In this document: in pieces, positions 30,914-53,592 of the stretch
Layout of the letters: every line of letters begins with the position of its first letter
Position numbering within the stretch: position 1 is the stretch's first letter
IMG/VR virus record: IMGVR_UViG_3300037225_000856
Location: 32,001 to 96,000 of that record
Strand: one strand, 5' to 3'
Length of the DNA stretch: 64,000 nt
DNA from: a virus
The notes under the pieces: generated by a model
The model's database searches: none
What the model was told of the DNA's origin: nothing
The model's input: the letters and a program-made list of their open reading frames with translations, nothing else
Made by a program: the position numbers and the translations under genes

Positions 30914-32719
30914 ATGGAATTGCCTGTTTTTATAGTATATGTAGAAAGAATTCCCAGAAGACTGGCATATTATTTAAGGTTTTCAATAAACGACCAATTA
31001 ATTCAGCGCATAAAAGAATTACCTCAAGAGACTCGTAAATGGAATTCAGTTATGATGGTATGGGAAGTTACAACGCCTTCATTATTGTCTCTTATTAAGA
31101 AATATAGAGGTTCGAATAAAATTCATTTTGATTTTGGCAATGAAGACAGTAGAAAAGTATTTATTCAACAAATTAAAAAAATTGAAATTGCTGAAGAAGA
31201 AAAACGTAAGTTCATTGCCGATCTTAATATTAAAAAAGAGCAGTGGGTACAATATAAACTGGAGTTAGAGGAAACTTATGAGAAATATAGCGAGCAATGC
31301 CATGCTTTATTAAACAAAGACATAAAACTTTATCCACATCAAATTACTGCAGCATTATTTATGAATGCCACTCGTAATACGTTAATTTCTCACGATATGG
31401 GACTTGGTAAAACACTTTCGAGTATCCTTTATGTTGAAATGAATAATTTTGAAAAGGTTATTGTCGTTACTCCTAAATCATTAATGTTCAACTTCTTTTA
31501 TGAGATTCAAAAATTCACCAGAAGTAATGCGCATATTATAAATTGGAAAAAAAATACTTGTTCTGTTGAGAATGCAAAATATGTTGTCATTAATTATGAT
31601 TTTTTTAATTCGGGCAGTAAAGAAAAATTTCAAGCAAAATGGAACAAACTAAAATTTGATAAAATTGACTGCGTTATTTGTGATGAATCCGTAAAAATTA
31701 AAAATACAAAAAGCAACACTTATAAAAATTTTAAATCGGTATTTAAAAAAAATATATTTAAAAACGAAAAAATCAGTAAAATTTTTCTTTCTGGAATTCC
31801 ATGTCCCAATTCTTCACAGGAACTTTATAGTGTTATGAATCAGATATCTCCAACAGATTTTGCAACTAAGAAATATTTTCTGGAATATTTTTGTGGATTA
31901 GTCTACGATTATAATAGTGGTTGGGGTTATATAAAAGATAGTGGTGAAGCCAAACTTGAAGAACTTTATCATAAAATAGAACCGTTTGCGCATCGAAAAA
32001 GGAAATTTGAAGTATTAAATCTTCCAGAAATAACATATCAAAGACTAATATTGGATATGGACGATAAAGAATATGAAACATATGAAAAAATAGAATTGGG
32101 TGTAGTTAACGAATTTATAGAACATCCCACGCATAATCCGCTTACTACTATGATTCGTCTTCGTCAGTTTTTATCATCATTAAAAATTAAACATGTGTTG
32201 GAATTGGTTGATACAATATTAGAAACAGGAGAAAAAGTTGTGATAGTAGATTTTTTTAAAGATAGTTTATATAAATTAAAAGAAAAACTTGGTAATGTTG
32301 GTGGTCTTCACACTGGCGACCAAACTCCTGAAGAACGTGCTGAAATCGTAAAACAATTTCAAGACCCTAATAGTGAAATGAAAGTTTTTATTGGCAGCAT
32401 ACAAACTGCTAATTTCGGATTAACCCTTACAGCAGCGTCAAAAATGTTTATTATGACATTACCCTATTCTGTTGGCGACTATGAACAACTTGCGAGTCGT
32501 ATACATCGAATCTCGCAACGAAATCCGGTAAGTATTTATCCCTTAATATATGATGATAATACAATAGATGGTCATGTATTTTCCGCCATTGAAAAAAAGC
32601 GAAAAGAAATAGTTAAAGTACTTGATAATGAAGACTATAAATCAAATGTTGAAGAATCTGTATTAGGTGAAGTAATTGAAAAAATAAAAGAAAAATATAA
32701 AAATAAATTACATAAATGA
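30914..32719 (+). CDS. SNF2/HARP(SMARCAL1)-like helicase
   Basis: LYPHQ, DMGLGKT, INYD, ICDES, LSGIP, GLTLTAA, R.HRISQ. Confidence 0.85.
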   Translation: MELPVFIVYVERIPRRLAYYLRFSINDQLIQRIKELPQETRKWNSVMMVWEVTTPSLLSLIKKYRGSNKIHFDFGNEDSRKVFIQQIKKIEIAEEEKRKFIADLNIKKEQWVQYKLELEETYEKYSEQCHALLNKDIKLYPHQITAALFMNATRNTLISHDMGLGKTLSSILYVEMNNFEKVIVVTPKSLMFNFFYEIQKFTRSNAHIINWKKNTCSVENAKYVVINYDFFNSGSKEKFQAKWNKLKFDKIDCVICDESVKIKNTKSNTYKNFKSVFKKNIFKNEKISKIFLSGIPCPNSSQELYSVMNQISPTDFATKKYFLEYFCGLVYDYNSGWGYIKDSGEAKLEELYHKIEPFAHRKRKFEVLNLPEITYQRLILDMDDKEYETYEKIELGVVNEFIEHPTHNPLTTMIRLRQFLSSLKIKHVLELVDTILETGEKVVIVDFFKDSLYKLKEKLGNVGGLHTGDQTPEERAEIVKQFQDPNSEMKVFIGSIQTANFGLTLTAASKMFIMTLPYSVGDYEQLASRIHRISQRNPVSIYPLIYDDNTIDGHVFSAIEKKRKEIVKVLDNEDYKSNVEESVLGEVIEKIKEKYKNKLHK

Positions 32720-33927
32720 TATTAGATGAATTTGTTAAAATACGTTGGAATGGTAATAATATAAAGCATTTATCTGAAAAGGGATATTTATTTACAAAAA
32801 ATAATGATTTTATATTTGTTAAAATTTCAGATTTAAAAAGGGGCAGTAATATTAAAATCCATGTGAAGTGTGATATTTGTGGTACTGAAAGATATGTTAA
32901 ATATCAAAGTTATGTTAAAAATATTAGTGGTTGGAATTTTTATGGTTGTTCACGCAAGTGTTCAATATATAAATATCAGGAAAATAATTTAAAAAAATAT
33001 GGTGTTGAACATCCCACTCAAAATAATGAGATTAAAAAAAGAACTAAGGAAACCAACATAAGAAAATATGGTGTTGACTGTCCATTACAAAATGAAATTA
33101 TTAAAAAAAGAGTTAAAGAAATTAATATTGAGAGGTATGGCGTTGAAAATGTAATCCAAAATGAAAAAATTAAAGAAAAAATTAAAAAAACCAATATTGA
33201 AAGATATGGTGTTGAAAATGCGAGTCAAAGCAAAGAAATTAAAGAAAGGGTTCGACAAAAAAATTTAATAATATTTGGTACAGAGTATGCTTCACAAAAT
33301 GCGGAAATTAAAAAGAAAACAGTTAAAACTAATTTAAATAAATATGGTACTGAAAGTCCGCAACAAAATGAAAAAGTTAGAAAAAAAACAAAAGAAACGA
33401 CTATGCTGAGATACGGTTGTGAAAATCCCTCCCAATTTAAAGAATTTAAAGATAAAAGAAAAAATACTGTAATGTTAAGATACGGTGTTGAATATATTAG
33501 TCAAAATGAAAATATTAAAGAAAAAATTCAAGAAAGCATGATTGAAAAATATGGGGAAGTGTGGGTTAACCAAATACCTAAATATAATATCAATTCAATT
33601 ATTTATTTAGATATGCTTTCAGAAAAACTCAACCTCCCTATTCAGCATGCGCTAAACGGTGGTGAAAAAAAATTTGTTAGATATTATGTAGATGGTTATA
33701 TTTCAGAATATAATATATGTATCGAATGGGACGAAAAACAACATGAAAATAATAAACAAAAAGAAAGTGATGTAAAACGTGAATCTTTCCTCAAAGAAAA
33801 TTTTAATTGTCAGATTATAAGAATTAATCAAAAAGAATTTTTGAAAGATGTTGATAATCAAATAAATCTGGTTTGTAATAAGATTAATAATTTTATAAAA
33901 AATAATTATAATGGCAAACCTATATAG
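32716..33927 (+). mobile_element. homing-endonuclease-like protein: KYGVE..Q repeats + Vsr-like nuclease
   Basis: CDICG..CSRKC, about ten TN.E.YG repeats, YYVDGY..IEWDE.QH. Confidence 0.7.
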
Positions 33928-38807: not shown

Positions 38808-40511
38808 ATGAAAAGTGATTTTTCAAAATTTCTTAATGGTGGCTATAAAGGAATATCTCAAATAAGAAATAAATTTCCTAATGAATATAATAACATTATA
38901 AAATTCAATCAAAATTTTGGAGATATTCATTGGGGGCAAAAACTATATAATTATGTTAATAATTTAATTTTATTGCCCACATGTAAATGTGGAAATAGTG
39001 TTAAATTTTATAAATTTAACAAGGGATATGCCATATATTGTTCGAGTAAATGCAGATATGAAGATACTGAATTAAAATTAAAAATAAAACAATCGTTTTT
39101 AGCAAAATATGGCGTTGAAAATCCTTTACAATCTCCAGAAGTGCAAAAAAAACGAAAAGCATTGTTTTTTGAAAAACACGGAGTTGAACATCAATCACAA
39201 TTAGCAGAGGTAAAAGAAAAAAGGAAACAAACAAATCTTGAAAGATTTGGCACGACAACAAATTTATTGTGCGAAGATACTAAAAAGAAAATAAAGATTA
39301 CAAATTTAAAGAAATTTGGTGTTGAACATAATTCACAATGTGAAGAAATTAAAGAAAAAAAGAAACAAACAAGTTTAAAAAATTGTGGTTTTGAATATAA
39401 TTTTCAATCATCTGAATTTAGAAAACTTTCTAAAGTGTCAAACAATGAAAAATATTTAAAAAAAATATCGGAATTATTAAAATGTAATGTAAATGATATA
39501 AGCGTCAATGACAATATAATTACAGTTAAAAAATATTGTGAAAAACACGATTCATTTGAAATTACAAAACAAAATTTATATAGTCGATTTATCACATATA
39601 AACAAATAAATTTTTGTACTAAATGTTATCCCATAAATGATAATATTTCAATAAAAGAAAAAGAATTAAAAAATTTTATTGACGAATTAATAATTAATAA
39701 CATAAAAAATTCTAAAAAAATAATTAATCCACAAGAAATCGACATCTATATACCTGAATATAAATTAGGTATTGAACTTGATGGTTTATATTGGCATAAC
39801 GATATTGCAAAAGATAAAAATTATCATTTAAATAAAACTGAAGAATGTGAAAAACAGGGAATTCAACTATTACATATTTTTGAAGATGAATGGATTTATA
39901 AAAAAGAAATTGTAAAAAGTATTATTAAGTCTAAGTTAAATCTAATTGAAAATAAAATATTTGGAAGAAAATGCATCATTAAAGAAATTGATAACATATT
40001 AAGTTCTGATTTTTTAAAAACTAATCATATACAAGGATTTGTTGGAAGTAAAATTAAACTGGGTTTATTTTATAATAACGAACTAGTTTCAATAATGACT
40101 TTCGGTAAAAAAAGAATTAGTATGGGCAATAAACAACCAACAGATGAAGAATATGAAATGTTAAGATTTTGTAATAAGCTCAATACAAGCGTTATTGGTG
40201 GAGCAAGTAAATTATTGAGTTATTTTATAAAGAACTATCAACCAAAATTTATTTTAACTTTCGCAGATCGTAGATATTCAAATGGTAACCTGTATGAAAA
40301 ATTAGGATTTAAGTTTATTGGTAACAGCAGACCTAATTATTGGTATTTTAAACAAAATGAATTAATCAGATATCATCGCTTTAACTTTAGAAAAGATAAA
40401 TTAGTTAAAGAAGGTTATGATTTAAATAAAACTGAACATCAAATTATGGCAGAAAGAGAGTATTTATCTATACATGATTGTGGTAACATGAAATTTGAAA
40501 TGAAATTTTAG
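38808..40511 (+). mobile_element. Hef-like homing endonuclease: KYG repeats + Vsr-like nuclease + GNAT(Mom)-like C-terminal domain
   Basis: EIDIYIP..GIELDGLYWH..HIFEDEW; EMLRFC..GGASKLL..FADRRYSNGNLY..LGF; own TATCTTTG at 38793. Confidence 0.7.
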
Positions 40512-40533: not shown

Positions 40534-41304
40534 ATGGCAAACCAAGAATTATATGATAAGACGTATTCTGTGCCCCCAGATGTGTTAAATAGTATTCAAG
40601 CAGCACTTATATCCAATCCGAACAATAGTGGTACAAAACGAGCTAAATTCATAATTAGAAATGGCGCATTAACTTATCAAGCAATGAAAAGATTGAAGAA
40701 TTTTTTTGATTATTTTAATTCGCAGACTGGAGATAAAATGCAATATGTTCTTGCTGGCGGAAATGCAATGAAACAATTTATTGAAAGAACTTTAGCAAGC
40801 GACAGGGTAGGTGTTGAACAATCGAAAAAAGTAAAACAAATGTATAATGTTGACCCGATGTTAGGAACAAAGCCAGCACAGACACCACAATTAAATGAAG
40901 ATAAAAAAGAATTGAAAAAGAATGCAGTTGCTGTTATTGTTGACAATGATAATAAAATATTGTTACTTAAAAGAGGGAATAAAGTACTTTGGATGCCTTC
41001 AAAATGGGGATTGGTTGGTGGTGGGATTGAGAAAAATGAAACACCTAAACAAGCAATTGAAAGAGAAATAACAGAAGAAACAGGATTGGAAATAAAAAAA
41101 TTTATTAAATCATTTAGTATTCAAAGAAATCCAGATAGTATTGAACATATATTTGTTTGTCGATATGATGGTGACCCAACCGATATAAAACTAAATGAAG
41201 AAAATACAAATTATGGTTGGTATGATGTTGATGAAATGAATTTCTTGGATATTGTGCCAAACCTGATTGAATATATAAATTTAGTTTTCACAAAATATGA
41301 TTAA
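40534..41304 (+). CDS. unknown N-terminal domain + Nudix hydrolase
   Basis: Nudix box GGGIEKNETPKQAIEREITEETG, preceded by an LNE linker at 40891. Confidence 0.85.
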   Translation: MANQELYDKTYSVPPDVLNSIQAALISNPNNSGTKRAKFIIRNGALTYQAMKRLKNFFDYFNSQTGDKMQYVLAGGNAMKQFIERTLASDRVGVEQSKKVKQMYNVDPMLGTKPAQTPQLNEDKKELKKNAVAVIVDNDNKILLLKRGNKVLWMPSKWGLVGGGIEKNETPKQAIEREITEETGLEIKKFIKSFSIQRNPDSIEHIFVCRYDGDPTDIKLNEENTNYGWYDVDEMNFLDIVPNLIEYINLVFTKYD

Positions 41305-43280: not shown

Positions 43281-45920
43281 ATGACTTACGATAACTTCTT
43301 AAAATTATTGGATGAATTTGAAGAAATACAATCATTTGCAAAGAAAATTGAATTCGCTAATCGATATTTTCAAAGAATAGGTAGTGGGTCAGGTAGAATA
43401 GTTTATGATATTGACGGCACTAAAGTTTTTAAATTGGCAAAGAATGCCAAAGGCGTTGCTCAAAATGAAGCTGAAATAAATATTGGTTCATATCATGACA
43501 CTCATAGTATAGTTACAAAAGTTTTAGAAAGTGATAATAATGGTAGTTGGATTATTTCCGAAAAAGCAAAAAAGGTTAACGAAAACAGAATTAAACAATT
43601 AACTGGCATTCCAAGTCTAAATGATTTATTTTATTTTCTTAGAAATCATGAAGACAACATTAAAGGTGGCAAGGGTATATTTGGTCAGGATGCAGATATT
43701 AAAGAGTTATTAAATGATAATGAATTTGCTATTGAATTAGAAGACATAATGGCAAATTATTCTGTATCTGCTGGCGACTTAGGCAGACCAAGCACATACG
43801 GTGAAGTTCTTCGTGACGGTCAGCCAACAATTGTTTTAACTGATTATGGATTAACAGGTGAAGTGTATAATACTCATTACAGTCCAAATAGAAAGAAAAA
43901 TTATCGCCTTTTTGAATTGTATGATAATTATGATGGTAATGATGATATACTTGGAGATATGCCACCACAAGATGCAATTGATACACGTAGAGGCATGTGG
44001 GCGCAAATACCTTACAGCGTAGGCGATGGTAGCGGTGTGATAAATGAAGGTTTTATATCATTTATACTTGACAGAGATAAGTATCCGACAAGAGTGTTGC
44101 CGAGCGCACCATATATAGTCGATGAATTTCATAATTGTGTAAATAATATTGACGAAACTTTGAATCATGTTAAAAATAAAAAGAAATTTTATGAAAATTT
44201 ATTGAAACTTCAAGAATATCTTATTGAACAAAAATTTTATGACAGAGAACCTTTAGGTGAAATTGTATATTTAAAAGAAGACGGTAGTGCTTTATATTCT
44301 ACTGATAATGCAATGGGACAAGATAATTTTCCTGTACATAATAATATCGATACTTCACCTTCAATTAGAAATGATCTTGATGCAAATAGAGATAAAATTA
44401 ATGAAGAAAAATGGACAGGTAAAGCGTATAGAGTAGAATCTGGTTTTAGTAATTTACGTGATACAACTGCCGGGGATGTTGTAAGATTTGAAAGAGATGA
44501 ATTGGGAAATGTAGGTGATTTTGCGCACATTACTGATGAAAAATTAAAAGAATTAAATAATTATTCTGCTCATGATATTGCTTGGTATACAAAAAATTTT
44601 GAAGATGCTAAAAGATATTCAGAAACAGACGATTTTTCAGATATTGAAGAATATGAATTATCTGGCGAAATTATTGCTACCGATGGTGATGGTGGATATT
44701 TAGTTTTAAATAATCAATTGAAAGAAGATTTAGAATATCATAATGTGGTGGGAGATGCCACAAAAGATCAATACATGTTGGATGAAAGACAATTATCTTC
44801 AATGGCTGGCAGCAGTACTGTTGAAATAAAAAAGAAATGTAGATTAGGTGGTTTAGGAAATACAAGTGCGCAGTGCAATTGGGGTGATATTAATGCTGTA
44901 GATATTAAACCGCTTAAAGAAGAGGTTAATGAAGAAGTTAATGCAAAAGAAATGCGCAGCGATATTGCTGCAATTAAATCAATTCTAAATGGAAAGAGAG
45001 GGGTTGCTTTTACTGAAATAAACAAATCCATTGCTCAAAAACTTGAAAAAAAGAAAATTGGTGTTATTCCTACAAGAATGACTTCAAATAACACAATGTT
45101 TGCAATTATATATACCGATAAGGTTAATGCATATTTACTTTATGAATTTGCAAAGAAAAATAATGGATATCTTTTAGATAAAACTTCAGAAGAAGCACGT
45201 GAGATTGGAAAATTATTGAATTATTCACCAAGCGATATAGAGCAACACATTCGTAATAAATATAATAAAAAACCACCATTAATGCCCGACAAGTCACCGG
45301 ATGATTTTAATGACTTGGCTGAAAATGCTTCACTGGACTTTTGGGATTTGAATGAAGAAAAATTTCCTGAATTCGAAAAAGATATTCAGCAAGACCTTAC
45401 AACACATCAATTGGATAAAAAATATATAAGAAGTTATCAGGACGGAGAACATACATACAATGTTTATGCTGTTAATGGTGATGAAGTTCGTGATAGTGGT
45501 TTTATTGAATGGGTAGATGGTGGTAACCATTGGGTTGATGCCGATTTACCGAAAATCGAACAAAAATATGCAAAACATATTGGAGAAAATGATTATTGGA
45601 TTGATGATGTGTTTATGGTTAAACCAGCAGACTTTGAAGCAATATTATTACATGAGAGAACAGAAAGTTTTATCATAAGACATTATGGTTATGAATATAA
45701 TGATGCTCATAATATTGCGAACAAAGTTGAAATGATGTTTAGAAAAAAAATACCTGATGGAGCAAATCGTGCTCTTGCTGAGAAAATTTATGATATATTT
45801 GTAGCTAATTTCAAACCAGAAAAGAGTAAACAGAAACATAAACCAGTAAATGAAATGTTAAATGAAGCACAAATAATTTTAATTAATATCAATGAAGCAA
45901 AATCAATGATGAAAATATGA
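43281..45920 (+). CDS. polyvalent protein: kinase-like + ART-like + unknown domain + zincin-like metallopeptidase
   Basis: IGSGSGRIVY..VFKLA..QNEAE..GDL..LTDYG (kinase fold); AYR..WYT..DAKRY; EIGKLLNY; LLHERTE..AH. Confidence 0.6.
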   Translation: MTYDNFLKLLDEFEEIQSFAKKIEFANRYFQRIGSGSGRIVYDIDGTKVFKLAKNAKGVAQNEAEINIGSYHDTHSIVTKVLESDNNGSWIISEKAKKVNENRIKQLTGIPSLNDLFYFLRNHEDNIKGGKGIFGQDADIKELLNDNEFAIELEDIMANYSVSAGDLGRPSTYGEVLRDGQPTIVLTDYGLTGEVYNTHYSPNRKKNYRLFELYDNYDGNDDILGDMPPQDAIDTRRGMWAQIPYSVGDGSGVINEGFISFILDRDKYPTRVLPSAPYIVDEFHNCVNNIDETLNHVKNKKKFYENLLKLQEYLIEQKFYDREPLGEIVYLKEDGSALYSTDNAMGQDNFPVHNNIDTSPSIRNDLDANRDKINEEKWTGKAYRVESGFSNLRDTTAGDVVRFERDELGNVGDFAHITDEKLKELNNYSAHDIAWYTKNFEDAKRYSETDDFSDIEEYELSGEIIATDGDGGYLVLNNQLKEDLEYHNVVGDATKDQYMLDERQLSSMAGSSTVEIKKKCRLGGLGNTSAQCNWGDINAVDIKPLKEEVNEEVNAKEMRSDIAAIKSILNGKRGVAFTEINKSIAQKLEKKKIGVIPTRMTSNNTMFAIIYTDKVNAYLLYEFAKKNNGYLLDKTSEEAREIGKLLNYSPSDIEQHIRNKYNKKPPLMPDKSPDDFNDLAENASLDFWDLNEEKFPEFEKDIQQDLTTHQLDKKYIRSYQDGEHTYNVYAVNGDEVRDSGFIEWVDGGNHWVDADLPKIEQKYAKHIGENDYWIDDVFMVKPADFEAILLHERTESFIIRHYGYEYNDAHNIANKVEMMFRKKIPDGANRALAEKIYDIFVANFKPEKSKQKHKPVNEMLNEAQIILININEAKSMMKI

Positions 45921-46771
45921 ATAAAAATACTTGGACTAATAATGAAATAATATTATTAAAAAATAATTTTGCAATAAAAACAAATGAGGAATTAATTAGT
46001 TTATTTTCAAATAGAACAATTATGTCAATTAAAGTTAAAGCAAAACGACTTAAATTAAGAAAAAATAAAGAAACTGAATTTAGAAATAGAAGTATTGCTC
46101 ATCTGGGAGAAAAAAATTCAATGTGGGGTAAAATATCTAAAATACATGGAAAAAATTATGATGATTATTATGGTAGTGAAAAATCAAAAGAAATAAAAAC
46201 TAAATTATCAAAAGATAAGATTGAAAAACATAAAAATGGTGTATTAAATACTTCTGGTATTAATAATGGTATGTTTGGTAAAATATCACCAAATAGAGGA
46301 ATAACAATGGTAATTGAACAAAGAAAAAAAATATCTGATGCAAAAAAAGTATATTGGAATAATTTATCGGATAAAAGAAAAAATGAATTAAATTTAATTA
46401 GAATTAATAATATTTATAAAAACAAAATAATTGATACTAAACCTGAAATTATTATTGAAAATTATCTTAAAGAAATTAATGTTTATTATAGAAAAAAAGA
46501 AATTGTCGGATATTATAATTGTGATTTTATGATTAATGATAAATTAATTATTGAAGTGCAAGGAGATTATTGGCATGCAAATCCAATTAAATATTTAAAT
46601 AAAAAATTAACATTAGCACAACAAAATAACATACATAGAGATAAAAGAAAGTTTACTTATTTAAGTAATCGTAATTATAAAATATTATATTTGTGGGAAA
46701 ATGATATATATCGAAATTTGAACATTTGTAAAAATCAAATAAATAATTTAATATATGGGAAAACTGAATGA
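45917..46771 (+). mobile_element. homing-endonuclease-like protein: NUMOD3-type repeats + Vsr/DUF559 nuclease
   Basis: GEKNSMWGK, NGMFGK, TKPE, YNCDF..IEVQGDYWH..D..LWE. Confidence 0.75.
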
Positions 46772-49700
46772 TTTTATATTAATATTAAAGCAAAAACCTT
46801 TTATTAAATCACTAATAAATGATTTAAAATCAGATGTTTATGTAGTTGGTGGAGTTGTGCGTGATCTTATACTTAATAAACCCAATAAAGATATTGATTT
46901 GGTGGTTGGAAAAGTACCAATAGACAAATTAGTTGCACATTTACAAAAATTTGGTAAGGTAGATGTTGTGGGTAAATCATTTGGAGTCATTAAATTCATT
47001 GATAATGAGGGTATTGATTATGATATTGCTTTACCGAGACGAGAAACTAAAAACAGTGAGGGTGGATATCGTGGATTTGATGTACAAAGTGATGAAAATC
47101 TTCCAATTGAAGACGAATTAATTAGAAGGGACGCTAAGATGAATGCTATGGCTATTAATATTAATACAAATAAATTTATTGACCCATTGGGAGGATTAGA
47201 AGATATAAAAAATAAACAAATATCTGCAGCAAATCCAGAGGCGTTTTCAGATGACCCATTAAGAGCTATAAGATTCTGTTCATTTGCTTCACGTTTTGGA
47301 TTTACTATTGACCCAGACACAATGAAAATGATTCAAAAAAATGCTGGGAGAGTAAAAGAAATAGCACCAGAGAGAATTTTGACAGAATTTGATAAAATTG
47401 TCAAAAAGGGAAACAAACTATTGGCTGCAACACTACTTGATGAAACTGGTTTGCTTAAAGAAATATTTGGTAGAGGACTATATTATGATTTCAGAAATAC
47501 AAAAGAACCCTTTGATAAAGTAAAAACAATGAGTGAATTTATTTATTTGTTAAGTAAAAATCTTGTTAATGACCCTGCAGAGTTTTACAAAAATAATCTT
47601 AAAGGTGATGAAAATACATACAGAGAAATAAAAGCACTTCAAATAGCATATGATAGCGGTGAAGCAACCAATTTAATTGAAGCAAGATCAATTGCACATA
47701 ATATGTACGTGATATCTCCAATATCATTACAAAGTCAGATATTGCCAAATGTAATTAAAACTGCTGCACAAGAATTATTTGAAGGCAAGTATCCCAAAAC
47801 TGTTAATGAATTGGCAGTAAATGGTAATGATTTAATGGAACTTGGTTTACAAGGTAAAGTAATTGGTGATATGCAAAAATCATTATTATTAAAGATTTAT
47901 TCAAATAAAATTAGGAATAATAAAGAAGAATTGCTAAATTTGGCGGGTCAAAATAAACCAATGATTAAAGAAGAAGTTAGCGAAAGAATTGAATATGGAG
48001 CATTGTTATTATTTCTCGATATTCCAATTTGGAATAAAATTACATCAATAATCAATAAAGAAGATTTATATGATGAAGAAGGTTATGGTATTGAATCTGA
48101 CCCACATGTTACAATATTATATGGTTTCCATGATGAAGTTACTGCTGAAGAAGTGTTTGATTTATATAAATTAAATATACCATTAAAACCAATTGAAATA
48201 CGTATTAAAGGTATTAATATTTTTGAAACTTTTAAATTTGACGTAGTAAAATTTGATGTCGAATCCGATATACTTAAAAAAGCACATGAGATAATGAAAG
48301 ATTTGCCAAATACTGAAGATTTCCCTGATTATCATCCGCATATAACAATTGCATGTGTAAAAAAAGGTGAGGGCAAAAAATATACTAAACCATTTGAAAA
48401 AGAAATAATATTAAAAGGTAATAAATTAATATATTCTACTAAAGGTCAAAGAGGTGATGCTGGCGAAAAACTAATGCTTGAAGGTGTTGCTGATAGATAT
48501 GCGGAGAAAACATTCAACATACCCGACCCAAATACTCAGAATGATGTACAGGCAATGGGAGATATACAAAAAAGTGTTGAAGAACCTATTGGTTATGTTA
48601 CACCTTACTCCTCAAATGATTCAGCTAAAGAAGTACCAATATATTTAAATCCAAAGTCATTAACTAATTTTGCTGATAATGTCAGGGTAATTGTAAATGA
48701 TAAAGGAGATTTATATATTGCACAGGAAGATGGCAGATTTAATCATGGCATGATGGCAAAGGCATTAGGTTTATTTGCTTCTGATAATGGAATATATAAT
48801 GATATGGATGAATATCAATTATTGCATAGAGTAGACAACACTAATGCATTTGGGTTAGGCGATACTGCTGAAGATTATATTGAAAGAAAATATGAAAATA
48901 GAGTATATTTATTAAACATATTACGTCAGGCAAAAAGAAAAAATCCACAATATGATTTTTATAATGAATATTATGCGAATATAAAAGGTGAACCAGTAAG
49001 TCTTAATGAATTTGCTTATCCTGAAATAAGACCAGAAGAAAAAAATACTTGGAATATAAATGGAGAAAATGTTGATATTAAGTTTTTTGTTGAAAAATAT
49101 GACATATGGAATCAGGGTGGATATGCAGACCCTTCAGAAGCATCTGTGTTAGAATTTCTTCAAAATAATTATGAAGATTTCATTCATGACGAGAAACTTA
49201 AAAAAGAATTACTTGTGGCTTTAACTGATAGAAATGTATTAGATGAAACGGTTTTAAATGAAATGTCAATTCAGACAATAGATTATACCGATATTATTAC
49301 TCCAGAATATATTAAAGAAGTAGAAATGAGTGATAATTATGAAAGATATATTGAATATTATCAGTATGAAGAAAATATGGTTCATGTTGACAAAGAAGAA
49401 ATTGAAAAAACTGAAAATTTTAAAAAATGGTTCAGATATGAATTAAGTGTCAGATATGAGGATGTTGTTGATAATATAACAAATAAAATAAAACCTGATG
49501 GTACTATTGATATTTGGAGAAGAATAAAAGTTGATGATATTTGGGTTAATCATCTTTTACAAGCGGGAAAACATTTGGGTATTTATTGGTCATGGGATGA
49601 ACGTGCTGCAGAAGCACATTGGGGTGATACAGCAAAAAACAGTAATGCATTAATAAAATCTTCAATAAATGAAAAATATATTGATTGGAAAAATACAATA

Positions 49701-49865
49701 TATGCAAACATGGATTTAAGTCTTGGTGAAGATGAAAAAGAAATAAGATTGTTTAAAAATACATCATTAAAAATTGAAGAATTAAATATTGATGGTCAAA
49801 ATGTTGAAGATATTATGGGAAGCGATTATGAATTACAATTAAGAAATAAAACATTTTATGCGTAA
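46755..49865 (+). CDS. cca: polyvalent protein: CCA-adding/poly(A) polymerase + Acb1-like 2H phosphoesterase + two unknown domains + R-S-E ADP-ribosyltransferase-like domain
   Basis: VGGVVRD, DIDL, RRD..NAMA, DP.GG..D, F.DDPLR..RF, ERI..E; PHVTILYG and YHPHITIA; IWR..GIYWS..EKEI. Confidence 0.8.
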   Translation: MGKLNDFILILKQKPFIKSLINDLKSDVYVVGGVVRDLILNKPNKDIDLVVGKVPIDKLVAHLQKFGKVDVVGKSFGVIKFIDNEGIDYDIALPRRETKNSEGGYRGFDVQSDENLPIEDELIRRDAKMNAMAININTNKFIDPLGGLEDIKNKQISAANPEAFSDDPLRAIRFCSFASRFGFTIDPDTMKMIQKNAGRVKEIAPERILTEFDKIVKKGNKLLAATLLDETGLLKEIFGRGLYYDFRNTKEPFDKVKTMSEFIYLLSKNLVNDPAEFYKNNLKGDENTYREIKALQIAYDSGEATNLIEARSIAHNMYVISPISLQSQILPNVIKTAAQELFEGKYPKTVNELAVNGNDLMELGLQGKVIGDMQKSLLLKIYSNKIRNNKEELLNLAGQNKPMIKEEVSERIEYGALLLFLDIPIWNKITSIINKEDLYDEEGYGIESDPHVTILYGFHDEVTAEEVFDLYKLNIPLKPIEIRIKGINIFETFKFDVVKFDVESDILKKAHEIMKDLPNTEDFPDYHPHITIACVKKGEGKKYTKPFEKEIILKGNKLIYSTKGQRGDAGEKLMLEGVADRYAEKTFNIPDPNTQNDVQAMGDIQKSVEEPIGYVTPYSSNDSAKEVPIYLNPKSLTNFADNVRVIVNDKGDLYIAQEDGRFNHGMMAKALGLFASDNGIYNDMDEYQLLHRVDNTNAFGLGDTAEDYIERKYENRVYLLNILRQAKRKNPQYDFYNEYYANIKGEPVSLNEFAYPEIRPEEKNTWNINGENVDIKFFVEKYDIWNQGGYADPSEASVLEFLQNNYEDFIHDEKLKKELLVALTDRNVLDETVLNEMSIQTIDYTDIITPEYIKEVEMSDNYERYIEYYQYEENMVHVDKEEIEKTENFKKWFRYELSVRYEDVVDNITNKIKPDGTIDIWRRIKVDDIWVNHLLQAGKHLGIYWSWDERAAEAHWGDTAKNSNALIKSSINEKYIDWKNTIYANMDLSLGEDEKEIRLFKNTSLKIEELNIDGQNVEDIMGSDYELQLRNKTFYA

Positions 49866-50563: not shown

Positions 50564-50740
50564 ATGAAAAGCAAAGACAAAACAAGAACAGTTACACCAA
50601 TGGATGTAGCCAAATTTTTAGGTGTTGAAAAAGAATATAAAGAAGTTCTTTTTGAACAAGAACTGAAAGAAAATCATGATATTATTATGAGTAATAATAT
50701 CGAAGAAAATAATACTATTAGAAAAGATAACAATAAATGA
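50564..50740 (+). CDS. 58-aa peptide duplicating the C-terminal motif of the downstream ArdC-like protein (not in the ORF track)
   Basis: MKSKDKTRTVTPMDVAKFLGVEKEYKEVL..; ATGA overlap with 50737. Confidence 0.65.
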   Translation: MKSKDKTRTVTPMDVAKFLGVEKEYKEVLFEQELKENHDIIMSNNIEENNTIRKDNNK

Positions 50741-52296
50741 AAGCATTAAATGAAGCATTTGTTATAAGCAAAAGAACAGATCAGAAGGGTAATTATATTG
50801 CATATATTGACCCGAATAAGCCAGAAAACAAAGAAACTTTTAAATACAAAGACATATTTAAGAATCATGGTGCTAAATGGAATAATGATTATAAATTTTG
50901 GTTTTGGTATATAGGCAAAACAAAAGATCAATGGCAAAACGTTTACAGTCATTTCATTGAACCAGCATTAAAAGAAGTACATGCATTAGAAGGTGCTCCA
51001 GAAGAAGAAAGTGCTGCAGCATTAATATCATCACTGGATGCTCTTTTGTCAGAAATTAGTGCAACACCAACCACTACAAATCCAGAAAATGACGCTGAAC
51101 TTACGCCTGACGAAAAAAGAGCACTTATTGATAAATTAGGAAAGTTTAAAGAAACTTTGGTCAATATTGATAGCGATGAAGAATTTAAAAAAACAATGCA
51201 AATTATTTTATCTTTTAAAAATTCTCAAGGACATTCATATAGTTTCATGAATAGCATATTGATTATGATTCAAAATCCTAATGCAAGTTTAGTAAAAAGC
51301 GAAATCAACTGGAATAGATTTAATAGAAGTGTTGTTGATAAGAAAAATAGAATGATTATACGTTCTCCGAGTAAGAGAGCAATGAGACCATATTCTAAAA
51401 TTGAAAAAGAAAAAATTACTGGAGAATTTTTAAAGTCAGTTGGTAAAAATACCTATAATGAATTGGGTCCGGGTGAACGTGAACGTCTTGGCGTTCAACT
51501 TCGTGGAGCGTTTAGTGGTCATGATTTTGACTATACGTTTGTATATGATGTTTCGAATACTCAACAAATGGAAGGCAAAGAAAATTTCTTGGGTGATTAT
51601 GAAAAACGTAAAGAGATTAAATGGTTTGAAGAAAACATGATAAGTGAAGAAATCAGACCAATATATAAATCATTGCTTGATTTTGCTCAAGAAAACGGAG
51701 TTAAAATAGAATTGGTTGATGAATTGGATGGTGCAAGAGGTGTTAGTCATAATGGTATGATTCAAATTTTAAAAAACGAAGGCAATGATGTTGGTTTAAC
51801 AAAAACATTGGCACATGAAATTGCACATGAATTATTACATCAAAGTTATATGAAAAATAAGAATTCAAAATATTCACAATATTTTGTAGGTAAAGCTGAA
51901 GGCAGAGATGCTGTTGAACAACAAGCTGAATTGACAGCATGGATGGTATTAGGCTCATTTAATTTTGACTTGAAAACAACTTCCTTAAATTATGCAGCAA
52001 TGTGGGGTGCTGATAAAGATGCTATGATTCGTGTATTTGATACAGTATCTGGTGTTGTCAGTATGTTGGTGGATTATATTAGCAGGAAAATTAAAAATAA
52101 TGCAAACAATGCTGTACCACAAAATAACACAAATGCAGCTACACCACAAAATGAAACGCTTGACAATACATCAAGAACAGTTACTCCAATGGACGTAGCA
52201 AGATTTATTGGTGTTGAAAAAGAGTACCAAGATGTTTTAAATAAAAATAAAAGCGAACTGGTAGAAAATTTCTACAGTTTATTAAAAAAATTATGA
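50737..52296 (+). CDS. ArdC-like ssDNA-binding domain + zincin metallopeptidase (MPTase), with an N-terminal GAKW..W domain
   Basis: YSFMNSILIMIQNP.A..W..FNR, VYDVSNT, ARG, TLAHEIAHELLH, EQQAE. Confidence 0.8.
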   Translation: MKALNEAFVISKRTDQKGNYIAYIDPNKPENKETFKYKDIFKNHGAKWNNDYKFWFWYIGKTKDQWQNVYSHFIEPALKEVHALEGAPEEESAAALISSLDALLSEISATPTTTNPENDAELTPDEKRALIDKLGKFKETLVNIDSDEEFKKTMQIILSFKNSQGHSYSFMNSILIMIQNPNASLVKSEINWNRFNRSVVDKKNRMIIRSPSKRAMRPYSKIEKEKITGEFLKSVGKNTYNELGPGERERLGVQLRGAFSGHDFDYTFVYDVSNTQQMEGKENFLGDYEKRKEIKWFEENMISEEIRPIYKSLLDFAQENGVKIELVDELDGARGVSHNGMIQILKNEGNDVGLTKTLAHEIAHELLHQSYMKNKNSKYSQYFVGKAEGRDAVEQQAELTAWMVLGSFNFDLKTTSLNYAAMWGADKDAMIRVFDTVSGVVSMLVDYISRKIKNNANNAVPQNNTNAATPQNETLDNTSRTVTPMDVARFIGVEKEYQDVLNKNKSELVENFYSLLKKL

Positions 52297-52679
52297 GTAA
52301 TATATCATATAGTGCAGTTGTACTTGACGAACAATCAAGAGAAAGATTAATCAACAGGTTTAAATCAATAATTCCAGAAGGATTTGAAATTATTGCGCAT
52401 CATATGACTGTTAATTTGGGTGAAATTGACCCTGAATATGAAAAGTATCTTGGCTTAGCTGTACGTTTAACTGTTAATGATATTGCTATGGATGATAAAG
52501 TAATTGCAGTTGGCGTATCATCAGGAATTAATAGTCATAATACCAAAGCACATATAACATTGGCAGTAAATAAGGCAAATGGTGGCAAACCAGTGATGTC
52601 AAATTATCTAACTAATTGGGAGAAATTACGCAGACCATTATTATTAAGAGGAAAAATAACTCAAGTAGAATTTAAATAA
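52293..52679 (+). CDS. 2H phosphoesterase, tRNA-ligase CPDase-like (2',3'-cyclic phosphodiesterase)
   Basis: HHMT..AHITLAVN..GGKPVMSN. Confidence 0.75.
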   Translation: MSNISYSAVVLDEQSRERLINRFKSIIPEGFEIIAHHMTVNLGEIDPEYEKYLGLAVRLTVNDIAMDDKVIAVGVSSGINSHNTKAHITLAVNKANGGKPVMSNYLTNWEKLRRPLLLRGKITQVEFK

Positions 52680-52680
52680 A

Positions 52681-53592
52681 ATGATAACAAGACTATGTGC
52701 ATTTGATTTTGATAGTACTCTTATAGATTCTCCCCAAAAAGAAAGTGGAAAAATTCAATGGTCAGAGAAAATGGGAAAGCCACATCCATATCAAGGCTGG
52801 TGGGGTAGACCAGAAAGTCTTGATTTAAATGTTTTTAATATTAAACCATTTCCTAAAATATTGAATCTTTTAAATAAAGATGTTTCAACACCAGCTACAT
52901 ATACAATTATATTGACTTCAAGACAGGAAAAATTACGTCCTTTAGTTCAGGAAGTATTGGATGTTAATAATATTCATATTGATAAACTCGATATGCAATG
53001 TGATCAAAGAACTAAAGGTCAAAAAATTCTTGATTATACAAAGAAATTTCCAGACCTGAGAGAAATTAATGTTTACGATGACAAAGATAGTGATATTATA
53101 TCATACGAAGGAATAAGAAATTCATTACCTGAAGATATAAAATTTAATATTTATCTTGCTAATCAAGGTAGTTTAACTTTAGTTGAAGCAGAAAGTAAAC
53201 TTATATCAATTATTAAAGAAGAAGTTCAAAATTTTGTTCCTGATAATAACTATGTATATCATGGTACATATGATGGTGCTGGTTACTACATACAGCGTAC
53301 AGGTAGTATGAAGATTAATGCAGCAAATAATAATGAACCTTTTATTTCATTTACCAGCAAACCAAATGTTGCAAAATATTATGCAGATATGAAAGGCGGG
53401 TCAGCCAGAGGTATTGTACTTAGAACAAAAAAGACTGCAGACTTTACACCATCACTTAAATATAAAAAAAATGAAGGATATGAATGGGTAACAACCAGAG
53501 AAATACCAGTAGATGAATTAGAAATTAACACAAAATACGGTTGGATTCCATTGAATAATTGGGATTTTATCGATAAAGAAATAAAAAAATAA
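52681..53592 (+). CDS. RNA-repair-type HAD phosphatase fused to an ART-like domain
   Basis: FDFDSTL, WW, ILTSR, K, VYDD; linker LVE..IIKEE; YHGT..ISFT..A.YYA..YEW. Confidence 0.7.
   Translation: MITRLCAFDFDSTLIDSPQKESGKIQWSEKMGKPHPYQGWWGRPESLDLNVFNIKPFPKILNLLNKDVSTPATYTIILTSRQEKLRPLVQEVLDVNNIHIDKLDMQCDQRTKGQKILDYTKKFPDLREINVYDDKDSDIISYEGIRNSLPEDIKFNIYLANQGSLTLVEAESKLISIIKEEVQNFVPDNNYVYHGTYDGAGYYIQRTGSMKINAANNNEPFISFTSKPNVAKYYADMKGGSARGIVLRTKKTADFTPSLKYKKNEGYEWVTTREIPVDELEINTKYGWIPLNNWDFIDKEIKK

Follow-up and report, generated by a model that had tools for sequence, protein, structure and literature searches.

What would a bacteriophage do with a single polypeptide that carries a tRNA nucleotidyltransferase, a 2H phosphoesterase and a domain with the fold of the ADP-ribosyltransferases (ARTs)? 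The question is raised by one open reading frame (ORF) in IMG/VR record IMGVR_UViG_3300037225_000856, of which we analyzed a 64,000-nucleotide stretch (positions 32,001 to 96,000 of the record; "the window", to whose numbering the coordinates below refer). The ORF, at 46755..49865 on the plus strand, is open and intact by translation and homologue alignments, encodes 1036 amino acids (aa), and is built of five modules, A through E. A preliminary description of this DNA, made from the letters alone, had proposed that tRNA repair, activity against CBASS (cyclic oligonucleotide-based antiphage signaling system) and host-protein modification are all carried on this one chain; the ORF stands as described there, every coordinate given checks out, and the start codon at 46755 is supported by several homologues that align from residue 1. 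The record spans 112,403 bp at a CheckV completeness of ~37%, which points to a genome of roughly 300 kb, that of an uncultivated jumbo phage. We argue here, from sequence comparison and structure models, that the protein belongs to a family anchored on a class II CCA-adding enzyme, with accessory modules shuffled on and off, and that much of the chain may serve the upkeep of tRNA 3' ends.

The CCA-type anchor and the modules shuffled around it

Module A (aa 1-400; 46755..47954) had been described as a class II nucleotidyltransferase over residues ~1-400, and its Pfam, NCBIfam and PDB matches, together with its motifs, identify it as a class II tRNA nucleotidyltransferase. Residues 28-156 match PolyA_pol (PF01743; E 3e-22, 79.8 bits against a Pfam cut-off of 23), residues 182-238 match PolyA_pol_RNAbd (PF12627; E 4e-14, 52.4 bits, cut-off 22), and PRK13299, a 396-position model of the Bacillus-type CCA enzyme, aligns full length over residues 23-397. 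The top PDB relatives are CCA-adding enzymes (6ibp and 1miv, E about 1e-23). Along the module run the motifs GGVVRD32-37, D46xD48, RRD124-126, DPLGG143, DDPLR166-170 and ER206, among them the complete catalytic set GGxVRD, DxD and RRD (G32-D37, D46/D48 and R124-D126). The likeness to Bacillus-type class II enzymes extends to head, neck, body and tail as well as to GGxVRD/DxD and RRD; unlike those enzymes, module A has a DDPLR templating motif and is followed by four more modules. DDPLR (aa 166-170, window 47250-47264) is a variant of EDxxR and, being common to 44 of 50 relatives, is a trait of the lineage; it could alter the nucleotide choice of the module. The region is matched by 486 GenBank phage records, which makes module A by itself ordinary and phage CCA enzymes common, and it is about 25-30% identical to the CCA enzymes of cultured phages.

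The joining of CCA addition to a phosphoesterase has a parallel. The E. coli CCA addition/repair enzyme (PRK10885) likewise combines, on one chain, CCA addition with a phosphoesterase able to clear blocked 3' ends. In E. coli it is the HD domain of the enzyme that has these phosphoesterase activities, and on them the analogy is based; the phosphoesterase here is of the unrelated 2H fold, and the PRK10885 match is limited to the nucleotidyltransferase part (residues 27-238).

What company does module A keep elsewhere? Among 260 relatives examined by BLAST and purpose-built profile hidden Markov models, 258 bear modules and 71 combine at least two different ones. Five modules are shuffled, along with a sixth, F, which is the product of the neighboring gene at 52293-52679, and they form dozens of distinct architectures. 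Pair counts in the 71 multi-module relatives are 43 for A+B, 43 for A+D, 29 for A+C, 24 for A+F, 38 for B+D and 17 for C+F, and the orders seen include A-B-D, A-D-B, B-A, A-F-B, C-A-B and A-C-C-C-F. A sister protein (P0012) is A-B-C-D-F, the same chain with the miniature 2H module F replacing the ART-fold module E. An exhaustive search whose query was the C-D-E segment (aa 571-1036, without A) returned 944 representative clusters in public data; 17 of the 36 long C-bearing matches carry the CCA domain even though the query lacked it, so that the link between C and the CCA enzyme is no artefact of the query. E, for its part, makes up 62 stand-alone clusters and a further 15 that carry an unknown N-terminal part, and is fused to A in close relatives only; judged by this distribution, it is a promiscuous add-on. 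One relative (P0162) has three copies of E, and in another, of 1919 aa (L003:3243-8999), E directly follows the CCA enzyme with no 2H module between.

Such architectures recall the polyvalent proteins of Iyer et al. (2017, PMC5512222), which also assemble many unrelated enzymatic domains on one chain and shuffle them extensively; further points of likeness are the polyvalent hallmark domains, ART-PolyVal among them, borne by relatives (P0011, P0026, P0038 and P0043) and a metallopeptidase-like gene nearby. Unlike those proteins, the present family is anchored on a tRNA enzyme and RNA-end-processing domains, and the gene lies among replication genes. No polyvalent hallmark domain (ART-PolyVal, MPTase and others) was detected in the 1036-aa protein or in the 112-kb record, which holds ~37% of the genome. 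Searches of this record for RNA ligases, RtcB, a T4-type prohead protease and ART-PolyVal were all negative, and for three of these searches the controls matched nothing anywhere.

Modules B through E

Module B (aa 408-570; 47976..48464) is a 2H phosphoesterase with likeness to both Acb1 and LigT. The two HxT motifs attributed to it earlier are where they were said to be: H451-V-T453 (48105..48113) and H529-I-T531 (48339..48347), the latter following an F523-P-D-Y526 motif shared with T4 Acb1, and all four catalytic residues are invariant across the 28 family members aligned. The 2_5_RNA_ligase2 model (PF13563) spans both motifs at 28.4 bits (cut-off 27), and Pfam Acb1 (PF23474) scores 31.5 bits (gathering cut-off 27) over profile positions 59-130 of 144 only. 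In a single-sequence search of the PDB, Acb1 (7t26) is the sole significant match, the other listed being a heroin esterase at E 1.2, and hhalign pairs B with T4 Acb1 (gene 57B) at 79% probability over 28 columns that share F-x-D-Y-x-P-H-x-T. On these three counts the earlier label "Acb1-like 2H" holds as a description of sequence. The match is confined to the C-terminal half of the domain. Of the Acb1 features that we sought in B (Y12, W74, F107, W147, E141 and the C-terminal lid; PMC9117128), only F107 has an aligned counterpart, F523, six residues before the second His, the others falling outside the reliable alignment; in Acb1, F107 stacks on the base (PMC9117128).

A different weighting emerges when the 28-sequence family profile is compared with the PDB, which returns the archaeal LigT-type RNA 2',3'-cyclic phosphodiesterases 1vdx (E 0.003) and 2fyh (E 0.0063) level with Acb1 (9q2g, E 0.0063, and 7t26, E 0.0073); the LigT-type enzymes align across both HxT motifs. 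Closeness to LigT/ThpR and the archaeal PH0099-type enzymes is accordingly a matter of the family profile; hhalign against E. coli ThpR covers 82 columns at 20% probability, and the LigT/ThpR model TIGR02258 gives 17 bits, far under its equivalog cut-off of 65.7. With the Acb1 of T4 and of Erwinia phage FBB1 (PF23474; 7t26), B shares the 2H fold, the HxT/HxT tetrad and F-x-D-Y-x-P-H-x-T; Acb1 stands alone, compact at about 150 aa and bearing a C-terminal lid, whereas B is embedded in a chain of 1036 aa. Among viral 2H enzymes, identical active sites go with very different substrates (bioRxiv 10.1101/2025.08.21.671373), and "Acb1-like" is for that reason a fair name for the sequence of B that does not settle its function. 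Two observations may be added. A 306-aa homologue of B (P0210, 61% identity) comes from a eukaryotic transcriptome assembly, where it is probably a phage sequence carried along in the sample. T4 57B itself (L010:13953-14411) is still labeled "RNA ligase" in RefSeq, and lies between ipI, which encodes an internal virion protein, and 57A, about 1.4 kb from the T4 tRNA cluster.

Module E (aa 838-1036; 49266..49862) consists of a helical subdomain followed by an ART-fold core (~aa 915-1036, window 49497-49862). The R..S..ExE pattern noticed earlier (IWR at 49512, YWS at 49584, EKE at 49734) corresponds to R922 (49518..49520) in the first core strand, S946 (49590..49592) inside G-I-Y-W-S-W, and E994-K-E996 (49734..49742), which leads into a core strand. 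In an alignment of 49 sequences, mostly stand-alone proteins of ~200 aa, R922, G942, W945, E994 and E996 are invariant (R922, E994 and E996 in 49/49), the S946 column holds S in 41, T in 7 and A in 1, and the recurrent motifs are [IL]x[IL][WYF]R, LGIYWSWD..AAEAHWG and E-K-E-I-R-L-F-K-N-T-P. Because R, S and ExE all stand on columns conserved in these 49 homologues, the pattern is no chance match. The AlphaFold model of E (predicted local distance difference test, pLDDT, 93.5; predicted template modeling score, pTM, 0.87) has the helical subdomain and then an alpha/beta core, with R on strand 86-95, S on strand 113-115 and ExE running into strand 165-168, the layout of the R-S-ExE class.

Foldseek, one of the checks that the preliminary description had suggested, found nothing in the PDB for this model at E 0.001 or better, and ARTs dominate its weak list. 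An exhaustive structural aligner gave 33 rows on the core, 31 of them from the ART superfamily as judged from entry titles. IcmQ (Z 6.7 over 107 residues), TreX (5.6) and EcPltA (5.0) come first; CARDS toxin, heat-labile toxin (LT), HopU1, DarT, pertussis toxin, Scabin, Vis, Tpt1, diphtheria toxin, Arr and PARPs are also there. Since every Z lies below 8, this support is moderate and any single match unsafe; its weight comes from the unanimity of the ART matches. In a library of viral models the best match is a full-length, uncharacterised phi92_gp246-like protein (TM 0.62/0.65, E 2e-6). The language-model neighbors of E are mostly R-S-E ARTs, with three DUF4765/EspN clusters first and then, among the nearest named clusters, DRAT, ADPrib_exo_Tox and T4 Mod_ADP_RT.

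By sequence, E stands apart. None of the 49 members matches the Pfam families ART-PolyVal, Mod_ADP_RT, ADPrib_exo_Tox or KptA at E 0.1 or better, hhalign finds no relation to an ART-PolyVal protein (0.5% probability) or to module C, the E profile has no match among PDB sequences, and tblastn of E against 50,697 GenBank phages gave none either; a related-loci search with a single E sequence reached four loci only. Of the earlier claim of an Alt/Mod-like C-terminus, what survives is the ART likeness, carried by the fold model, the invariant R/S/ExE and the language-model neighbors; by sequence, we found E to belong neither to Alt/Mod nor to another curated ART family. We take E, as the model and alignment suggest, for a sequence family new to the ART superfamily, and probably for an active R-S-ExE ADP-ribosyltransferase. 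Its predicted core resembles that of the R-S-E ARTs (T4 Alt/ModA/ModB, cholera/pertussis-like toxins, TreX and DRAT), with an Arg that follows an aromatic residue on the first strand, Y-W-S on the strand after it and an E-x-E-[IV] that leads into a strand; it differs from the curated members in its short R-to-S spacing (24 residues), its own N-terminal helical subdomain and its lack of detectable family membership.

Between B and E lie two domains that the preliminary description had bounded at 48483-49000 (aa 577-749) and 49011-49240 (aa 753-829), bounds that coincide with the independently derived shuffling borders of C and D. Module C (aa 576-745; 48480..48989) is a mobile alpha/beta domain without a Pfam family. 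Its invariant residues are N632, P633, L636, F639, H664 and R692, and its motifs EGVADKYAEK, IYKNPKSL.NF..NVRAI and KNPQF.F. It occurs singly and in tandem (up to five copies), often right after ART-PolyVal domains, and beside A and F; P0011 has an ART-PolyVal domain and then five C copies, and P0064 has five C copies too. In a two-domain model of C+D, pLDDT exceeds 90 over most of C. Scans with Pfam, PHROG and NCBIfam, run on aa 573-1036 and on every member of the C and E alignments, brought up no meaningful family, the C profile matched no PDB sequence, Foldseek of the C+D model against the PDB gave nothing at E 0.001 or better, the ESM atlas offered no lead for C, and tblastn of C against the same 50,697 GenBank phages found no match. 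Assignment of C to the NFACT-R/DUF814 type (FBPS, CCDC25, RqcH) was considered and set aside, its Z of 2.6-3.0 being too weak to use; the result lists for C+D were dominated by D.

Module D (aa 750-832; 49002..49250) is a small helical domain of ~85 aa resembling winged-helix/eS17 folds, its best structural matches being ribosomal protein eS17 and nucleic-acid binders of the winged-helix type (Z 5.4 or below); from its model it looks like a small nucleic-acid-binding helical domain. In relatives it shifts position relative to A and B and nearly always accompanies A, which suggests an RNA-binding accessory role. On the alignments and architectures at hand, C and D are real, autonomous and widespread domains, C being tied to the CCA enzyme and the 2H modules. 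The preliminary description had put both forward as candidate anti-defence proteins; none of the analyses made here points to such a role.

Neighboring genes and shared leaders

The ORF overlaps the preceding ORF by 17 nucleotides and the following one by 8, and so is part of a tightly packed gene array. In the record, GC content is 25-38% and the plus strand carries nearly all genes; around the CCA gene are a primase/helicase, a helicase, a DNA polymerase, homing-type endonucleases and virion or tail-fibre-like proteins. Two genes 2.4 kb downstream, both on the plus strand, are of the RNA-repair type. The first (52293..52679) encodes the mini 2H phosphoesterase F, 128 aa long with the motifs HHMTV and AHITLAV, which matches the cyclic phosphodiesterase (CPD) model of the fungal tRNA ligase Trl1 at the Pfam threshold and whose module stands at the C-terminal end of the chain in at least 28 relatives of the CCA protein. 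The second (52681..53592) weakly matches both polynucleotide kinase and the HAD phosphatase family found among the "Swiss Army Knife" RNA-repair proteins. Also on the plus strand are a metalloprotease-like gene (50737..52296; phrog_87, with a faint MPTase-PolyVal match) and, in the same array, a NUDIX hydrolase gene (40534..41304).

Two ORFs, at 45917-46771 and 32716-33927, have Vsr/DUF559-type endonuclease C-termini and may be homing-type endonucleases scattered among the enzyme genes; it is the first of them that overlaps the start of the CCA gene by 17 nucleotides. A large HNH/homing endonuclease (38808-40511; phrog_3339, E 2e-140) lies ~0.8 kb downstream of a 1255-aa DNA polymerase gene, one short ORF intervening, and the polymerase-family match of that protein is confined to its first 540 residues. 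The cultured phages closest to single modules infect Maribacter (Flavobacteriia), GenBank "huge phages" of 480-640 kb being close as well, and these relatives hint weakly at a host of the marine Bacteroidota type.

The junction between A and B (aa 401-414, 'PMIKEEVSERIEYG'; 47955..47996, plus strand) resembles the leader of stand-alone modules, and its "M-IKEEV" looks like the fossil start of a once separate gene. Stand-alone homologues of C, D and E, which are unrelated to one another, begin with similar short leaders ("M..IIKEEI..F", "MKHLKLFE", "MRAK..."), P0081, P0100, P0122, P0134, P0192 and P0201 being among the relatives that bear them. The "IIKEEI" type is present in 13 of 33 N-terminal C modules and 5 of 52 E modules, as against 1.3% of internal windows. 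Such a shared leader could be a targeting or processing tag.

Possible tRNA 3'-end maintenance and its alternatives

From the domain identities, catalytic motifs, predicted ART fold and fusion statistics given above we infer possible substrates, an order of steps and, perhaps, a counter-defence role. In the reading toward which we lean, without calling it probable, A, B and D act with the neighbors F and HAD in tRNA 3'-end maintenance, and E adds the NAD+-dependent modification of a host target. Once host nucleases or toxins had damaged the 3' ends of tRNAs, 2',3'-cyclic phosphate ends would be opened by the 2H module B, the mini-2H F, encoded by its own gene, and the downstream HAD-type phosphatase would help to clear the phosphate, and module A would rebuild the CCA tail, with D and perhaps C helping to hold the RNA; E, as a promiscuous add-on, would modify its host target with NAD+. 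This reading is favored because the link of B, C, D and F to the CCA enzyme has survived rearrangement and because the neighbors F and HAD are of the RNA-repair type. It is favored also by precedent: the product of 2H CPD domains is a 3'-OH,2'-PO4 end, which has to be cleared further (PMC11571804), CCA and 2H enzymes of jumbo phages have been proposed to act in RNA repair (PMC7824862), and bacterial immunity that cuts tRNA CCA tails exists (PMC12851939). The pairing of 2H and ART folds further recalls fungal Trl1 CPD plus Tpt1, although no ligase is in view here and the ART has ExE rather than the Tpt1 catalytic set.

Several points weigh against tRNA-end maintenance. Acb1 is the closest characterised relative of B by single-sequence search, and in huge phages stand-alone B homologues have no CCA gene within 8 kb. 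The presence of two distinct 2H modules suggests two substrates, and it is F, not B, that resembles the tRNA-ligase CPD. In the 112-kb record we found no RNA ligase, RtcB or KptA. The motif D of module A is DDPLR, not EDxxR, in the 44 relatives mentioned, the structural scores that make E an ART in its model are modest, and, fusions of E to A being rare beyond close relatives, the target of E may be unrelated to tRNA.

In the main alternative, the whole chain is a polyvalent set of unrelated counter-defence enzymes, and B, as a true Acb1-type nuclease, would destroy cyclic oligonucleotide signals of the CBASS type without any tie to the CCA enzyme. The above-threshold Pfam score, the lone significant PDB match, the hhalign probability and the aromatic residue at the F107 position (PMC9117128) all speak for such an enzyme, as do the ~177-aa stand-alone B homologues, Acb1-sized and not adjoining CCA genes, and the ART-PolyVal domain, a polyvalent hallmark (PMC5512222), in relatives; F alone could moreover cover RNA end-healing. 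The match is nevertheless limited to profile positions 59-130 and to 28 columns of T4 Acb1, the C-terminal lid and the other stacking residues could not be aligned, LigT-type enzymes score at least as well with the family profile, viral 2H enzymes with the same active site vary widely in substrate (bioRxiv 10.1101/2025.08.21.671373), and B keeps its linkage to the CCA enzyme through changes of domain order. We therefore doubt this alternative more than we credit it, while taking it seriously; anti-CBASS activity of B is possible and is not indicated by its context, which is that of RNA-end repair. A challenge of another kind concerns module A, which might be a poly(A), A-adding or other RNA-tailing enzyme: its PRK13299 score of 138.1 bits is under the NCBIfam equivalog cut-off of 290, DDPLR stands in place of EDxxR, and models of PcnB and of A-adding enzymes match too. 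Against this, the Bacillus-type CCA model is the best and the sole full-length match, and the nearest PDB relatives are CCA-adding enzymes, which leaves the idea a very slight chance.

For E, two roles other than the modification of a host target come to mind. It might clear the 2'-phosphate left by a 2H enzyme, as a KptA/Tpt1-like RNA 2'-phosphotransferase, with the 2H module then hydrolyzing the ADP-ribose cyclic phosphate by-product. The ART fold is common to both, mouse Tpt1 (7yw2, Z 4.2) is among the structural matches together with 9ld3 (Z 4.7), which we take to be Tpt1/KptA-like although its entry title does not name the protein, and two 2H modules, NUDIX and HAD are in the neighborhood. 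The catalytic set of Tpt1 is, however, Arg-His-Arg-Arg, and E conserves R, S/T and ExE, the toxin/Alt-type signature. As toxin-type ARTs also outscore Tpt1 structurally and none of the 49 members has an ART or KptA Pfam match, we consider this role highly improbable, despite a pathway logic that has a precedent in fungal tRNA splicing and that others have proposed for jumbo phages (PMC7824862). That IcmQ is the best structural match would suit a domain that binds NAD+/ADP-ribose without catalysis, as the IcmQ C-terminal domain does; the invariance of Arg and ExE in 49 divergent homologues is what one would expect of an active transferase, and makes such a domain distinctly unlikely. The chain might, finally, be a polyprotein cut at its module junctions and possibly packed in the capsid and injected, which would be compatible with any other reading. 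The common leader types on stand-alone C, D and E, the fossil leader at the A-to-B junction, LNE or LE at junction ends and the downstream metalloprotease-like gene would all fit, and processing and delivery of this kind have been suggested for polyvalent proteins (PMC5512222). The gene lies, however, among replication genes (helicase, DNA polymerase, endonuclease) and not virion genes, the leaders are equally explicable as a translation-start or folding preference of an AT-rich lineage, and a T4-type prohead protease was not found in the 112 kb, where the control search gave no match either; on balance we think processing somewhat unlikely.

To return to tRNA 3'-end maintenance, what would it mean for these phages? 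The protein belongs to known kinds, those of phage RNA repair and of polyvalent-type proteins. Immunity that cuts the universal CCA tail of tRNA was reported in 2026, and phages are said to need other, still unknown means of resistance to it (PMC12851939); a candidate for such resistance is a chain in which a CCA-adding enzyme is combined with end-clearing phosphoesterases. A bolder conjecture, which we regard as quite unlikely, is that uncultivated jumbo phages carry a CCA-anchored, freely recombining toolkit against attacks on the tRNA 3' tail (Cas12a3-like, HEPN-type), including a new R-S-E ART family, a new RNA-end-processing or tRNA-binding fold (C), and a common leader that directs processing or capsid delivery. 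Three domain families for which there is no Pfam model are defined here, namely the R-S-ExE ART-fold family, the 170-aa domain repeated up to five times and the 85-aa helical domain, and for the ART-fold and 170-aa domains, which were the two searched for among cultured phages, no match came up there. Module B sits between Acb1 and LigT in sequence, and knowledge of its substrate would help to relate anti-signaling nucleases to RNA-repair enzymes.

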